This document shows, piece by piece, positions 6,047 to 64,000 of a stretch of 64,000 bases of DNA. A program made the position numbers and the translations under genes. The notes under the pieces were generated by a model. It saw nothing but the letters and a program-made list of their open reading frames with translations, did no database searches and was not told where the DNA came from. The stretch comes from Lophium mytilinum (taxonomy: Eukaryota): NCBI GenBank assembly GCA_010093605.1, contig MU004184.1:1126801-1190800 (forward strand), given 5' to 3'. The first letter of the stretch is position 1. Every line of letters starts with the position of its first letter.

Positions 6047-8256
6047 ATGGCCGAGCAGGGCGAAAAGACCTTGTTGATGCCCGAGAGCTTAAAGCATGAC
6101 ACTCAGGATATTACTGATATCGATCGTCGGCTGTCACCCCAGCCTTCTCAGGTAAGCACCTTTACGGTAAAATAGGTCGCTGAGAAATACTCAACACGCT
6201 TCAGACATCGAGAACACCTGCAAGGTTAGAGGGGAGCTCGTCCTCAGATGCCACAACCAGCCTTGTGCCTTTCCAATCGTGTTCCACGGTCGACACACCA
6301 CACCAGGCACGGAAGGATGCTGTGAAATTATGCGATAATTGCCGCATGATTGACTTTCAGAAAGTCCTGGAAATCGATGCGGAATCACTTCAGAACCCTG
6401 CCAATGAAGGAGGCATTTACATCGCCAAGCTTGATAAACCCGAGAATGGTTGTGAGCTCTGTAGTCTTTGGTGGTCGGTATTCCCCGATTATCTTGGCCA
6501 ACGCCCATCTCAACTTCTATATGCAAGATCTTCCATTGATCATGATCGCGGGTTCTTGAACGGTGTGGATCGACCAATACTTGAGGCCATTCCTGAAGCA
6601 TTTCTCGATCCCGGAATTGTGTATGATGGAACAGATGTTGGTTGTTTCTTCGCTATAGAGACCTCCGAGGAAATGGACACGCCTGGACAAGTCCCACCCT
6701 ATTTTGAGCCCTCCACCGCGAAACTCTGGATCAATCAGTGCAAGCTACATCACACTTCAAGTTGTACATATAATGGCCAGCCAGTCCAAGGCTTAAAATT
6801 GATCAACTGCGAGACCTACTCAATCACAGCAGTATCCCAGTCAGTATCGTACGTGGCGCTAAGCTACGTGTGGGGGGCCGAAGAGCTAGATATGAGCCTT
6901 AAGCTGGCAGAGTGCAATCGATTACCGCAAAACATCCCCGAAATCATATCGGACGCCATAGCGGCTGCTAAAGCTTTGAGCTACAAATGGATCTGGATCG
7001 ACAAGTATTGTATTGATCAAAGTAACACAGGCAAGATGCGTCATCAGATCAACCAAATGGATGCAATCTATGCAGGGGCGGATCTTACTATCATCGCCGC
7101 TCTCGGGGACAGATTACCTGGGATCGGAGGGAAGATAAGAAAACGCCAGCCCGTCGTGAGGGTTGGTAAAACTACAGTCGCTTCAGCCTTAAGTCACCCA
7201 CATGAGGTCATAAGGTCTTCAAGGTGGTCAACAAGGGGATGGACATATCAAGAAGCCGTACTGTCACTACGACGTTTAATTTTCACGGATGAACAGCTAT
7301 ATTTTGAGTGCCGGGCCGGGCACTTATACGAAAGTCCATTGTACTATTACCCCGGAATGATCTCGCACGAAGATTGGGAAGCAGACTTGAAGCTACCCCA
7401 GAGACCAGGCTTATTTTCCGGCCGCCGCAATCCTACGAACCTCCAATCTCCTGTTACAAAATTATTCGAATTTCAGTGGCATATCGAGGAGTATTCTAAG
7501 CGAGAGTTGAGCTACGAAAATGACTCGCTCAGGGCATTTCTAGGGATCGCGAGATACTATGAACGGTCTCCGGAAATTCATGGGTTTAGTGTGCATCATT
7601 TGTGGGGAGTGCCCTTCTCAACCACGATTTCACCGGAACATAATGCCAACTACAAGTCTCTCCTGTCAGGTTTGCTATGGACATACGACGGAAAGCTAGC
7701 GAAACCAAAGCGGAGGATGGATTTTCCATCGTGGTCATGGACCTCATGGAGTGGACCTCATCATTTCGGCGTCCTTTTGGGAGCCCACTTTCTTACGCTC
7801 TCTTCTCATATCATCGAGTTATACCTGGAGTGCCGGCCAGGCTGTCTTACGGAATTCAGCCACATTGTCCGTACAAACTCAACTCTAGAACTTCCCCACC
7901 CTCGCGCACTTCACATGGACTTATTGGTCTGTCACCCTCCCACTTCTTGGACCGCAGGTAATCATCCCGGAAGAGTGCACTTTAACGGTTTAGTAGCAGA
8001 TTATAGGCCTTTACAAGATCCAAGTAACTGCAAAACCATCCAGGATGCGCTTCATGAAGGAACGTGCCAGCTATTGCTGCTCGGAAGCGGTGAAGTTTCC
8101 GATCTTCCTCATTATCGGTTCTTTCTAGTGTATCTCATGGTCGTCGAGGTTAAAGGAGATTTTGCGTCCCGAATAGGCTTGATGACTGTAGATGGATCCT
8201 TCGAAGAATTCGAAAAACATGTACGATTGGAGCAGCGGCGAGTTTGTCTCATATGA
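6047..8256 (+). CDS. HET-domain (heterokaryon incompatibility) protein
   Basis: Motifs YVALSYVWG, WIDKYCIDQ, WSTRGWTYQE, FPSWSW. Exon 1 6047-6151 and intron 6152-6204 (GTAAGC...CAG) join in frame to the long ORF. Confidence 0.9.
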
Positions 8257-57151: not shown

Positions 57152-57408
57152 ATGAGACTTCTCGACACAAGCACATTTAAAGTGTACGAATCCTTCAGAG
57201 GCACAATTAAACTGCACGAGTTCTTCGGAAACGCAATCCCAAACTACGCCATCCTTTCGCACCGGTGGGAAGATGGCGAAGTCTCGTTCCAGGACTTGCG
57301 AAATCCACAGGTGGCGTCCCGGAAAGCTGGGTGGAGCAAGATAAAGAGGTTCTGCGAGAAAGCCGCTGAGAGTGGATATAGATACGGCTGGATTGACACT
57401 TGTTGCAT
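57152..57408 (+). pseudogene. HET-domain gene (HET-E-type N-terminal HET domain), 5' part interrupted by insertion
   Basis: MRLL...YAILSHRWEDGEVSFQD...KIKRFC...WIDTCCI, then an abrupt AT-rich insertion. Confidence 0.92.
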
Positions 57409-57575
57409 TATATAGAGTCACCATCAATACCTTTACCCTATAAAAGGAGCGGCATATGCCGCTAAATATAGCGGTAGAACGTATATAGCTATTTAATACA
57501 AAGGTAGTCTTAAGTCTTAGTTAGTTATAATTCAACTAAGAAACCTCCTTACAGTATGGCTTTAGAATCCGATCT

Positions 57576-57716
57576 TGTAAGAAGGCTCAGAATCAGGCAC
57601 GGGGCTGAGCAATGGCTGAGCTCATCTTACTACTTAAGTCTGTCGCCATTACTACCTAACAAAGTAACCACTCTTATACACTAGTTCGGCTCGGGCTTGC
57701 ACCGCCACAGCTTACA
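57576..57716. mobile_element. Solo LTR (141 bp), nested
   Basis: TGTAAG...CTTACA termini; ATCT duplicated on both sides; more GC-rich than its surroundings. Confidence 0.8.
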
Positions 57717-57864
57717 ATCTGCTTATATACACTAAAACTTACTAATACCTAAGTCTATTTTAGATTTTAATATTATTAGCTATAAAAGTCTAATATAAGT
57801 TAGTAAGTAAGAACTTAGAACTATTAAATTATCTATATTTTATTCTACTATATCTACTAGGCTA

Positions 57865-57960
57865 TAGTAGCTAAGTATATACTTTATATAGTAGCTAAGT
57901 ATATACTTTATATAGTAGCTAAGTATATACTTTATATAGTAGCTAAGTATATACTTTATA
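57865..57960. repeat. 24-bp tandem repeat x4
   Basis: (TAGTAGCTAAGTATATACTTTATA)4. Confidence 0.92.
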
Positions 57961-58529
57961 TATAGCGCGTACTATATACTTAAAAATACGCTACCTCTAA
58001 CTAGCATTATAATAAAGACTCTCGGAATAATATCTATAAATTATTTCTTTTTCTTCTTTAATTACTCTTACTCTATAAATATATTTTTCTAATCTCTACC
58101 TATAAAAGTAGGGTGCTAACTAAAGCTATTAACGCCGTTAGCCTATAACTCTTCTATTAGTGCGCTATAGACCCTAATCTTTATACTAATATTTACTAGT
58201 TAACTAAAACCTTTATAAGCCGGCGTAAAGAAACGCTCTATTAAGTCTTAAAAAGAAAATATAATAAAGAAGGTTAGAAATCTTAAGCTATCTATATTAA
58301 GAATATTACTTATATAGTACTAAAGAATATTCTACTCCCTAAAGAGATAATTTTTTAGTTATAGAGAGAAGAATAAAAGCCTAAGAAACTATAAATTTTC
58401 TTAGGCTCTAATTAGCAACCTTTACCTTTTAAAGTTAAGAAGCGTAACCTAAATTCTATTATCTTACTTACGCGGCACTTACTTTTTATAGATAAGAATA
58501 AGGATAATAATAATATAGAGTGGGGCACG

Positions 58530-59600
58530 TATAAAGAACTTAAATCTAGTACTTTTATAAAGGTTTTCTATATAACTTATTCTAAGATACTAGGTTTAAG
58601 CTATACTATAAAGATTCTAAATAAACGCCCTAAAAGAATTAATACAGCTATACTAGAGGCTTTCGCCTCTATCTTATTAAAGTACTTACCCTATATTATT
58701 AAAATTATTAATTTATAGATTAGAAGTAGATTATTTAATCTTACTACACTTATAGTACTTATGCTGCCCTTAGTAAATAGTAGGCATCTAGGTAATTAAC
58801 TACGCACGCTTTTAGTTAGTAGGGGGAGTGCTAATATACTACTTTAGATTAAGACTTAAATCTTTTAATAGATATATTATTTAGTAAGAATATTAGATAA
58901 AATTTATAGAACTAGCTATATATATAGAGATATAAAACTAGAAAATATTTTTATCTATAATAACTCTATACTCTATACTAATTTTAGTTTTTATAAATTT
59001 TAAACGCATTTAATAGACCTAAAGTAGATATCTAGCGGGTCTACCGTAGAAATAGTACTAGTCCCGCCTATAGACGGCTAGAAATTAGAGAACTATAATT
59101 ATCTATATAATTATAGTTTAGAGCGGCTACTCTAAGATAATAAACTTTTAAAATATAAACCTCTAATACGGGTAGAACCTAGAGAGACGCTAAATAAGGT
59201 TATAGAAATAGGTAAAATTAGTAGTAATATTTTTAATCTTAGATAGATTATCTATAAGATACTCTAGGTAGTAACTTCTACTTTAGTTTATAGGAGAAAG
59301 CTACTATATCAGCTAATAGTAAAGATTTTTATATAGGATAGATAGTAATAATTCCTTACACTAATTAATAAAATCTTAAGATTATTACCGCCTTCTAATA
59401 TAACTCTAGAAGTTTTAAAAGAGCCTGCGCGTTATACTAAGCTTACTTAGAAGTTACTAAGTATTATTATCTATAATATAGTTATTTCTACTACCGCTAA
59501 TTAGAAGCCTTTAGGGAAAGTTACTAAGCTTATTAAAGATATAATAGACTTATATAAGATAGCTCTAGATACTTATTATACTAGAGATAGTAGACTAGTT
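58530..59600 (+). pseudogene. RIP-mutated Ser/Thr protein kinase relic
   Basis: Reversing C>T/G>A in one frame gives ELGSGAF.KV (58536), YA.K, HRDIKPENIFI (58923) and LYTDFG (58971); SDIF.LG follows downstream. Ends approximate. Confidence 0.85.
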
Positions 59601-60699
59601 TATAAGCCCTAGTAGACTTAAAGAGTAGTCTAAGTTATAATTATAGTTATATATCTTTTTTAAATTTATAATTAATCTATTATATTCTATCTATCGCCGT
59701 AGCTATTAGCTAGCCTTACGAGCACGTTCTTTAAGCACGTTCTTATTAGCGTATTAATTAATCTAGATTAAAGCTACTATATAGCCTCTTTAACTTATAG
59801 ATTATATTACTTATTTAAAACTTTATATATAAGCTAATAGCTAGTAGATATAATATAATTTATAACTTTTTAATAATTTCTAAGTAATCTATCTATTTAC
59901 CGTCTAATAGTAGCTACTATATCTAACGCCTATAAGTATAAGATATAGTTAATATAGAATTAATAGTTTTGCATTTTTTATATTTCTAGTCGCCTTTTAC
60001 TATAATAACTACTATAAAGAATAGTATTTACGCTTTCTATATAATTATTTATAGGTATAGTTAGTTTCTAATAGTAGTATTAAAACTTAAATAGCTTTTA
60101 GTAGGTCTCTTAGTTATTAAACTTATTAGTATATATTCTAAGAGAACTTCTTAGCTACCTACCTTATTATTTAGCGGATTAGATCTACCTATTATTACTA
60201 CTAGTACTTAGTTTAGTAAATTAGCAGCTTCGCGTTTATAGAAGTAAGAGTCTAGGTACTTAAATAGATAGGTATAAAAGCCTAATATAATTAAGAGAGA
60301 GATTTTTTTAGATAGAAATTAGAGGGAAGTAGCTTAATCTATATATATATATTATTAGGCGCCCTAGATTAATAGCTTATTCTAGAAGCAGGTTTAGGTA
60401 TAGCCCTAGTCTAACCGCGTAGATGCTAAGTATAGCAGCGTGCATATAGATATTAAAGAAATAAACTATTAAGTATAGCCCTTAAACTTAATAGAATAAA
60501 AAGTAATACTTAAATTATCTAAATTATACCTATTTAATAAAATTAAAGTTATTTTATATTTACTATAGGTGTCCCTAGTTCTTTCTTAGGTCTTTAAAGT
60601 ATAAAATAGCTTAATTTAAAGCGTCTTATATATATAAATACTATTAAATCCCCCTCTAAGTTAATTTACTATAACTAAGACTTCCCTATTGCATTTAAT

Positions 60700-62580
60700 T
60701 TCCTTAATTATTTACTAAGGGACAGGCTATAGTCTAATAAGAATACCCTCTATTTTAAATCCTTATATTAGCAGTTTCTAATTTAAGTTAAACTTAAAAT
60801 TTGCGACTATTTAGGCTTCTTTTCTCTAAAGAAGTATACTATTACGGCTAAACGCCTTAGTTAGACTTATTTATTTACCTTAAATATAGAAATAATACTA
60901 TTTAGCGTAGCTTTAATATATATATATATATAGGTAAGATTTATTCCCTATATTATCTCTATATAGGTTAGTTATTATAATAAGTTAGTAGGCTCTAATA
61001 GTTAGTTTAGAAAATAATGCTATAACTTTAGTTTCTATAATCTATATAGAAGTAGACTCTCTATCTATAACTAGAGCGGTAAAAAAATAGATACAAGAAT
61101 ACCGCTGCGCAGTATACCTTAATAAAAACTTATTCCGGCCTACCCGCCTTATTAATATTAGAAGGTTGGCTAATTAACGTTATATTATAATAATTAAGAT
61201 AAATAGAATATTAATTCTAGAATATACTTATCTCTCTTATTACTAGAGAGCCTCTTAACTAATTATAAACTTAATTACCCGCAAATTATCTCTAGAAGAA
61301 TAAAAGATTAAGATATATAAGCTACTATAGATAATATAAAACTCTATTTATATATTATATTAGTTTTAGTATTAATATATATAGGTTAATAGCCTCTATA
61401 TATTCTAAGATAATATTATAGATAAAGAGAAAGAAATTATTTTAATATCTTAAATCTATAAAAGTTCCGCCCTTATAATATATATATTAACGGCTTAGTT
61501 ATATAAGAAAGGTTTTCTTTAACTGCGGCTTAAATATAGTAAATTTTAGCTCTAGATTAGTATACCTAGTAATAAAGTTAGTAGAGTCTACCTAGATAGA
61601 ATTAAGTAGTTTTTTCTACCCGCTAAAGAGGTATTAGGTATATAAGCCTAGGCATTATAAGAAAGGTTACTCTCGCCCCGTTTACTAGAGTATAGTTAGA
61701 GAACTGTAAGGTAGACTTACTTCTATACTAAGAGGTATAATAGATACTAGCCTCTACTAGTAGAAATTACTTAAGAAGATAAGAGCCTAATTATAGTAAA
61801 TTATAACCTTTTTAGCTATCTTAACCTAATAGGGCTACGGCGCATTATTTAATATAGAAAAGAGCTTTTTATCTACTAGATTAAAGTTATTAAATAGTAT
61901 ACCCGTTAGAATCTTATATTTTCTAATAATAGACTTACTGCTATTAGTATAATTACAGTAGAAGTTTAAGAAAGGACTAGAGTACCTTATCTTATAGAAT
62001 TATAAGATTATAAAAAGCTTCTATTTCTACTATTATAGAGAAATATATTGCCTCTTTAGAAACTTCTTTTATAACTATTAATATTGCGTGCACCTTTATA
62101 GTTATAGGCTAGTATTAATAGTCTAGTATTAATAAATTATAGTAAAGAGTTAGTATTATTATTTAGAATTATAGATAGAGAAGTCTCTAGTAGCTTTAGT
62201 ATATTAGTATAAGGGTTAATTACTATTAAAGGCCGTATTTAAAGAGATCTATAGTAGACTAATAGATTTAATTAGTAGAAATATTAACTAATATTAGAGG
62301 ATTTAACTTAAGTTACTTTAACTAGGCACGATCTAGAAATTAATATTTAGCCTAACTATATTAATAAGATATTTACTATTAAAGATAATATAATTATAGT
62401 ATTTCCGGGTTTAGGTTTAGTATTTTTAGCTATTAGAGTGGCAAACTAGAACTATAATCTCGTTCGCGGGTTAGTTCTAGCGAGATAGGATAAGAAGTAT
62501 TATAGAAGGGTGGCCTTTTTCCAATTATATAGTAAGTAGAGTGCTACTATAATAGTAGACTAGCGAGTAGAAGCTATATA
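60700..62580 (+). pseudogene. RIP-mutated HET-domain gene relic
   Basis: One frame de-RIPs to PTRLIDI, YACLSHCWG (61223), WVDSLCIFQD (61382), RAWALQERLLSPRLL (61643), RAPSWSWAS (62087) and GLVL...YRRV (62501). Ends approximate. Confidence 0.9.
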
Positions 62581-63236
62581 TATTAAGTAGTATAAACTAT
62601 TATAATAAATTTATTCTAGAATCTATAACCTTTTAGTTAATAATATATCTAGAATATAAGTTAAATTAAAGGCTTTTAAATAATACTATATTTAGCACTA
62701 AATAAAAGGGTTTATAGGATTAAGAGGCTATTAAAATTATAAATTTTAGTGGGGTATAAAGGCCTATTATATAGTAAATAAACTATATAACCTAGTATAG
62801 CTACTTAAAAAGAGACTTTATATAAGATTACTTTGCAGGTTAATATTTATCGCTGTTTTTAAGTTAAATCTACCCTTAGCATACACCCGACTAGGCTAGT
62901 TAATAGTAGACAGCCTTTGCGAATAGTTGTCCTATGTAAGAGGCTGTCCTATGTAAGTGGACAGCCTCTGCTTAAATTTTTAGACCTAGTAGACATTCAT
63001 CTGCCTTAGCGGTCCTGGAAATGGGACCCTGCGTGAGAGGGTGAACCGCAACCCGGAAGGGGGGAGTCTATTTTCAGGCCCTTAAGCGGAACAGGGACTA
63101 TAAAATCTAAAAATAGTTATAGAGTAATTAGAAAGTACTTAAGGATAAATAACACCGTGTGGAATGTAAACCATAAAAATTACAGGTGTAAAAAAGGTTT
63201 AATAAAGTCAATATTGTCGCATTTGTACAATAAGTC

Positions 63237-64000
63237 TGTATCAACAAAATAAGCAGCTCCGAGTTATCGGAGTCCATAAATTCGATGTATCAATGGTATA
63301 AGAACGCCAGCGATCGTTTTGTGTACTTGAGCGATGTGACGACCGAGATTGAGGAGCCGTGGCGCGCGGGTGTGGAGAACGTTGAACACGAGTCACTACC
63401 GTCGGTCTATCAACAGTTTGCCGAAAGCCAGTGGTTCACAAGAGGTTGGACTCTTCAAGAGCTTATTGCACCGAAGCGCGTCCTTTTCTACGATACAAAG
63501 TGGCAGTCCCTCGGCAGGAAAGAGATATTGCTTGATCCGCTTGCCCAGATAACAGGGGTGGACTTCTATGTTCTAGAAGGGATACGCGACCCTTCATCCG
63601 TGAGCGTGGCGAAGAGGATGTCTTGGGCATCAGCAAGAGAGACGGCTAGAGAGGAGGATATGGCGTACTGTCTGCTCGGCCTATTCGATGTCAACATGCC
63701 AATGCTCTATGGGGAAGGAAAGAAGGCGTTCGTGAGATTACAAGAAGAGATCTTGAAGACCTCCGATGATCACTCCATATTCGCATGGACTATGTTTTCC
63801 CCGGAGGACGAGTACAGTTTCAATGGGCTTTTGGCGGAGTCACCAGCTGCCTTCAGCAAATCGTCTTCCATTGAATCCCTTGATCACACGAATATCGGCG
63901 ATTACGGAGATCACGAGTATAGCATGACGAACAAGGGATTGAAAATTACCCTTCAATTGATACCGTGGGGCGTAGACGTATATCTTGCTCCTTTGCGGTG
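63237..64000 (+). pseudogene. HET-domain gene, 3' part (runs off the window)
   Basis: Open frame CINKISSSELSESINSMYQWY...WFTRGWTLQELIAP...KRMSWA...REEDMAYCLLGLF...MLYGEG...RLQEEI...SIFAW. Confidence 0.92.

Follow-up and report, generated by a model that had tools for sequence, protein, structure and literature searches.

The window analysed here, a stretch of 64,000 nucleotides from Lophium mytilinum, contains an AT-rich block that is a true insertion of ~5.8 kb (57412-63236) in a HET-domain gene. The insertion carries the relics of two genes on the same strand, a protein kinase and a second HET-domain gene, both of which have been eroded by repeat-induced point mutation (RIP), and the saturating part of this mutation stops sharply before either end of the insertion is reached. 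The reading that we consider best, and hold with about even confidence, is that of a single transposable-element-like insertion with unique ends and a duplicated two-gene cargo. The interrupted gene (the host gene) and the parts of the insertion are as follows.

57152-57411, + strand: 5' portion of the interrupted HET gene, up to ...GWIDTCCI (E 6.2e-5 for Pfam HET profile positions 1-57; homologues aligned up to ...DTCCI).
57406-57411: left copy of the target-site duplication, TGCATT, of which a seventh base, A, matches too (sequence and homologue alignment).
57412-57731: left terminus of the insertion, lightly RIP-mutated (1-7 CA+TG per 50 bp vs. 0-1 in the core).
57732-62833: RIP-saturated core of 5.1 kb, read as a duplicated segment (dinucleotide indices and CA+TG counts).
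57863-57966: perfect tandem repeat in the core, 24 bp x 4.4 (both short-read contig sets break there).
58503-59615, + strand: relic of a stand-alone protein-kinase gene, from the catalytic domain to the C-terminus in one frame with no indel (Pfam, phmmer, and RIP-aware profile).
59616-61078: stretch between the relics without recognisable homology, probably intergenic (Pfam on six frames, PDB on two frames, weak coding score).
61079-62125, + strand: remains of a WxDSLCIxQDD-type HET-domain gene, in a single frame free of indels (Pfam and RIP-aware alignments).
62834-63236: right terminus of the insertion, lightly RIP-mutated (CA+TG counts; 11 bp perfect hairpin).
63237-63242: right copy of the target-site duplication, TGTATC (sequence and homologue alignment).
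63240-63998, + strand: 3' portion of the interrupted HET gene (INKISSSELSES...), whose frame stays open as far as the window end (Pfam HET profile positions 63-146).

The bounds of the insertion were derived from homologues of the host gene. Eight homologues were aligned, out of at least 120 that were listed for the host pieces, and the right piece was read from 63237 as CINK... for this alignment. In seven of the eight, the left piece ended with ...DTCCI at residue n and the right piece started at n-1; the eighth contained two HET domains, and the right piece was aligned to its other HET domain. This overlap of two residues means that the Cys-Ile codons are doubled, and the insertion is therefore bounded at 57412 and 63236. 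The doubled codons form a target-site duplication of 6 bp, possibly 7 bp, without loss of host sequence. Its two copies differ by two transitions, one RIP-type change per copy, each a C>T at CpA (CpA>TpA). The host gene is thus interrupted exactly at WIDTCCI|NK, as an earlier reading of the sequence (the initial annotation) had placed the break, and both pieces remain open reading frames. Among the matches listed, the best homologue of the host gene (66% identity) was a HET+PF26640 protein named from Mytilinidion resinicola. An assembly chimera at the junctions, which the initial annotation had raised, was ruled out, since both are spanned by contigs that were assembled from the source reads independently.

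RIP targets duplicated DNA and may spill over into adjoining unique DNA. The GC content of the block was 0.273, vs. 0.53 in the rest of the window and ~0.52 on both sides, and its TA/AT and (CA+TG)/(AC+GT) indices were 1.67 and 0.25, vs. 0.69 and 1.22 in the rest of the window. Compared with the reference level, CA/TG, CG, and CC/GG dinucleotides were reduced to 0.09, 0.24, and 0.32, respectively, and TA was 5.5-fold up. This TpA excess and CpA/TpG depletion mark the block as a heavy case of RIP-mutated DNA, in agreement with the initial annotation, which had described an AT-rich block erased by RIP. A mitochondrial origin of the block, as nuclear mitochondrial DNA, was considered and dropped because the substitutions are RIP-type.

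Within the insertion, the number of CA+TG per 50 bp falls off at ~57732, from 4-7 to 0-1, and recovers at ~62834, so that saturating RIP stops at 57732 and 62833, 320-400 bp inside the insertion ends. Both termini show light RIP, with TA/AT of 1.3-1.8 and (CA+TG)/(AC+GT) of 0.65-0.95 (1.67 and 0.80 in the left terminus), and RIP in the host flanks is lighter still. Because saturating RIP ends inside the insertion, the inner 5.1 kb alone appears to have been duplicated when RIP acted; the insertion ends and the host gene were probably single-copy, and the insertion as a whole was probably not duplicated. Sharp boundaries of this kind are also consistent with nested events, in which an element of ~0.7 kb (57412-57731 plus 62834-63236) would have inserted first and a repeated unit of 5.1 kb would have entered it later. 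This history is highly improbable: two hits at one place are needed, and inspection of the inner boundaries by eye, without a formal test, showed neither a duplication nor a repeat.

In a Pfam scan of all six frames of the block, in which stops were translated as X, just two families passed E<=10: Pkinase at E 0.028 and HET at E 0.13, each on the + strand. The X-read-through translation of 58380-59600 was used as a phmmer query against 1.84 billion representative proteins and gave three matches at E<=0.001, namely P0122 (7.5e-18), P0123 (1.4e-13), and P0124 (7.6e-4), all of which are stand-alone Pkinase proteins of 393-480 amino acids (393-495 across the relatives of the kinase, which stand alone as well). 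The cluster members were named from Hyaloscypha hepaticicola, Hyaloscypha sp. PMI_1271, and Monosporascus sp. 5C6A; accessions among the relatives are PMD15684.1 (H. hepaticicola), KAH8751848.1 (Hyaloscypha sp.), and RYP74042.1 (Monosporascus). Searched against PDB, the kinase read-through gave 11 weak matches, seven of them kinases aligned on the catalytic loop. A local, codon-level RIP-aware alignment was also used, which sums over pre-RIP codons (T from C and A from G, weighted by context) and whose null was calibrated by codon permutation. With a profile of seven relatives (alignment A1), it scored 233.5 bits (z 166), vs. a null maximum of 22.6 bits across frames. A single frame carries the match, from nucleotide 58509 to 59615 (profile positions 85-436 of 441), and the homology terminates at the C-terminal KPW of the family, followed by a stop.

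The alignment covered 82 of the 87 invariant columns of the kinase profile; 36 were identical, 39 were explained by C>T or G>A, and seven were incompatible. The relic is thus compatible at 75 of 82 columns, vs. 14.8 on average and at most 27 when random codons from the same stretch were drawn 2000 times. K137 (the VAIK lysine), D260 (HRD), and N265 (the catalytic-loop asparagine) are retained, and H258 (the HRD histidine) and D277 (the DFG aspartate) are altered in a RIP-compatible way. On the basis of the VAIK lysine, the HRD..N loop, and DFG, the relic is assigned to the Pfam kinase domain PF00069, and its ancestor was probably a complete, stand-alone kinase that is predicted to have been active. 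The open reading frame probably started between ~57900 and ~58260; a RIP-channel coding score favours the kinase frame from ~57900 on and is uninformative in the rest of the block. A metagenome scan with the kinase alignment found generic kinases alone, at <=52% identity, in short segments, and in no context of use, and the ESM Atlas yielded nothing but clusters of "kinase-like protein" from Ascomycota. A profile search with A1 recovered the clusters of the query itself and then generic kinases at <=57 bits; it says little on the size of the kinase family because it missed P0123's own cluster.

The second relic was compared with an intact HET-domain gene, P0121, that lies in the same window. 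A pairwise RIP-aware alignment gave z 9.0, with 61079-62125 corresponding to residues 179-525 of P0121 in one frame. In this alignment, 140 of 323 aligned codons were identical or RIP-compatible, whereas codon shuffling gave 55 +/- 6.6 (maximum 76). With a profile of 107 host-type HET proteins, z was 5.6 at 61163-61471, and the Pfam match given above is below Pfam's cut-off. The visible blocks YxxLSYxW, WxDSLCIxQDD, ERLLSPR, and a PSWSW-like motif (61223-61246, 61379-61414, 61661-61681, and 62090-62113) stand in order in one frame, and by these blocks the sequence is recognised as a relic of the HET domain (PF06985). It probably continues to ~62600, and its 3' end is not decodable because the stop-density and RIP-channel coding scores are too weak there. 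Searches with the RIP-mutated HET read-through found no protein match at E<=10 and no match in PDB. To judge from its motifs, the relic belongs to a subfamily different from the WIDTCCI(N/D)K type of the host, which means that the insert is no copy of the host gene.

P0121 itself (6184-8256, + strand, 690 amino acids, Pfam HET E 4.9e-29) lies 50 kb upstream and is of the WIWIDKYCIDQSN type. With the relic counted, the window thus holds three HET genes of three subtypes.

The scans and alignments confirm the kinase and HET motifs that the initial annotation had read on one strand by reversing C>T and G>A. It had left open that the pair was one fusion, which is unlikely: the kinase ends with KPW and a stop, its relatives stand alone, and the HET relic, 1.46 kb further downstream, is read in a different frame. 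A complete, stand-alone kinase ancestor likewise argues against a kinase-HET fusion. Because both relics are free of indels and the host halves are still open, the events are recent.

About 1.4 kb of the block is unaccounted for. In the stretch between the relics, Pfam found nothing on six frames, PDB found nothing meaningful on the two of six frames that were searched, and stop-density and RIP-channel scores were too weak to decode any coding sequence. Rfam and tRNA scans of the block gave no match. No transposase, reverse transcriptase, or recombinase was detected in the block by the six-frame Pfam scan, whose sensitivity on RIP-mutated DNA is low; the initial annotation had recognised none either. 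Detection of mobility genes is weak because even the complete kinase reached a Pfam E of only 0.028, and a degraded transposase may thus have escaped notice. Neither long terminal repeats nor terminal inverted repeats were found, even in a RIP-collapsed alphabet, and no repeat was common to both ends. The insertion thus does not qualify as a class II transposon with terminal inverted repeats, nor as a retrotransposon with long terminal direct repeats and a reverse transcriptase or integrase (sensitivity for reverse transcriptase being low). Helitrons insert between A and T without duplication, and the 6 bp duplication found here does not agree with this type. For Cryptons and Starships, there was no match to a tyrosine recombinase or captain gene, which a non-autonomous derivative would lack.

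Other copies were searched for at >=80% likeness in contigs from two sequencing runs of the probable source sample. No second copy of the block, its core, or its ends was found at this threshold. The negative is a weak one because two independently RIP-mutated copies are expected to be ~80% alike (an estimate from context rates), which sits right at the threshold. The extra contig pieces were short matches to the HET motif region 63432-63476. In run X1, a contig of low depth (45 vs. 90) joins 58688 back to 58074 with eight extra letters; this joint may reflect an assembly artefact, a tandem duplication present as a variant, or a second copy that has diverged.

The initial annotation had proposed a multicopy non-autonomous element. 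The insertion, its target-site duplication, and the lack of a detectable mobility gene agree with part of this proposal, whereas the multicopy state of the whole is not supported: RIP saturation is limited to the 5.1 kb core, and the source contigs gave no other copy at >=80% likeness. Worked out as a rival explanation, the proposal would have the whole 5.8 kb mobilised in trans, perhaps by a tyrosine recombinase of the Crypton or Starship kind, and RIP would follow from the copy number of the element itself. RIP does imply at least two copies of the core, and a flanking direct repeat of 6 bp without terminal inverted or long terminal repeats would suit such an enzyme. Cryptons, according to PMC3212892, have no terminal inverted repeats or long repeats and have terminal direct repeats of 4 or 6 bp, mostly 6 bp in the fungal CryptonF. 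On the other hand, the termini are only lightly RIP-mutated, no other copy was found in the source contigs at >=80% likeness, and no recombinase was detected, and we consider this explanation rather unlikely.

The single insertion with unique ends and a duplicated cargo would account for these observations as follows. An insertion of 5.8 kb, of unclassified transposon-like origin, would have entered a gene of the HET+PF26640 type by transposition, through a staggered cut of 6-7 bp. Its inner 5.1 kb would be a two-gene segment with a eukaryotic-type stand-alone kinase and, 1.46 kb downstream, a HET gene of another subfamily, both presumably intact before RIP. This segment, with a second copy of the cargo elsewhere, would have been present in at least two copies through one or more sexual cycles and would have been RIP-mutated to saturation because of those copies, and the single-copy ends of 0.3-0.4 kb and the host gene would have received spill-over mutation alone. 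The edge duplication and the RIP damage favour a transposon-like origin, and the pattern agrees better with a "Pack"-type element, a transduplication, or a cargo that has its donor locus elsewhere than with a multicopy transposon. Several points weigh against this reading: the copy search found no second copy; no transposase was found, although detection is weak; a break with staggered ends that was mended with captured DNA could leave a duplication just like this one; and ends that look unique could also arise if RIP is weaker toward the margins of a duplicated segment.

An alternative is a one-off capture during break repair in the host HET gene, in which a duplicated kinase-HET fragment with its flanks would have been taken up without any transposon. 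The block is single-copy in the source contigs at the threshold used, and transposon hallmarks are absent save for the short duplication, as this alternative would have it. However, a clean duplication of 6-7 bp without host loss is more typical of enzyme-made staggered cuts, and a fully duplicated fragment should carry RIP to its ends; the alternative is therefore judged unlikely.

The initial annotation went further in suggesting a mobile, multicopy, selfish module, perhaps of a toxin/antidote kind, which we treat as a hypothesis. It is very unlikely that a small cassette with neither an enzyme gene nor terminal inverted repeats, perhaps moved in trans by a tyrosine recombinase, carries kinase-HET pairs from genome to genome with a preference for the conserved WIDTCCI core of other HET genes. 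If it did, one death gene would have been knocked out and another delivered, which amounts to a selfish incompatibility module. A mobile cassette of any kind would mean that small elements without an enzyme of their own can carry cell-death and allorecognition genes of fungi into paralogues of those genes and disrupt them, which would be one route to a rapid turnover of the HET repertoire. As it stands, the insertion is a clean, recent case of RIP silencing a duplicated two-gene segment, and it shows that X-read-through queries and RIP-aware alignment can link even heavily RIP-mutated genes to relatives that are intact.

A full-text literature search found no described mobile cassette of a kinase and a HET gene. 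At vic4, a kinase-like gene is involved, and no HET gene is known to take part. Two-gene allorecognition loci that include a HET-domain gene are known, such as the Cryphonectria vic loci, which link a HET gene to a second, unrelated gene (PMC7849911); in contrast, interaction between the present kinase and HET genes, or polymorphism in them, would be conjecture. Among mobile elements of Dothideomycetes, ToxhAT/ToxTA is described in PMC12506042 as a non-autonomous cargo transposon of 14 kb that, like the present insertion, carries genes and no working transposase of its own; ToxTA is single-copy and heavily RIP-mutated in some species. It differs in its TA duplication and terminal inverted repeats of 74 bp, whereas the present insertion has a duplication of 6-7 bp, no terminal inverted repeats, and a cargo of kinase and HET genes. 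In Starships, a DUF3435 captain gene is followed by cargo, in which NLR genes are found too (10.1101/2021.12.13.472469). Cryptons and Starships share with the insertion ends without terminal inverted or long terminal repeats and short (4-6 bp) flanking direct repeats, its end pattern being Crypton-like. In contrast, neither a tyrosine recombinase nor a DUF3435 gene was detected here, and 5.8 kb compares with tens to hundreds of kb for Starships. The insertion resembles ordinary RIP-degraded repeats in composition, dinucleotide bias, and spill-over into the flanks; however, its content is two cellular-type genes rather than a retrotransposon or a DNA transposase.

The tandem repeat at 57863-57966 is perfect inside the RIP core and therefore arose after RIP or escaped it; its copy number is uncertain because both contig sets break at that point. 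In the right terminus, a GC-rich island (62900-63060) contains a TGTCCTATGTAAG motif that is duplicated, together with the perfect hairpin of 11 bp (near 62938-62968); the fold z was -2.15, which is not striking. The block is the only AT-rich one in the window, and the neighbours in 1-56300 are housekeeping-like, including genes for a SAM/PH protein, RhoGAP, DEP, a prenyltransferase, DUF6604, a signal peptide peptidase, argininosuccinate lyase, and a DEAD-box helicase.

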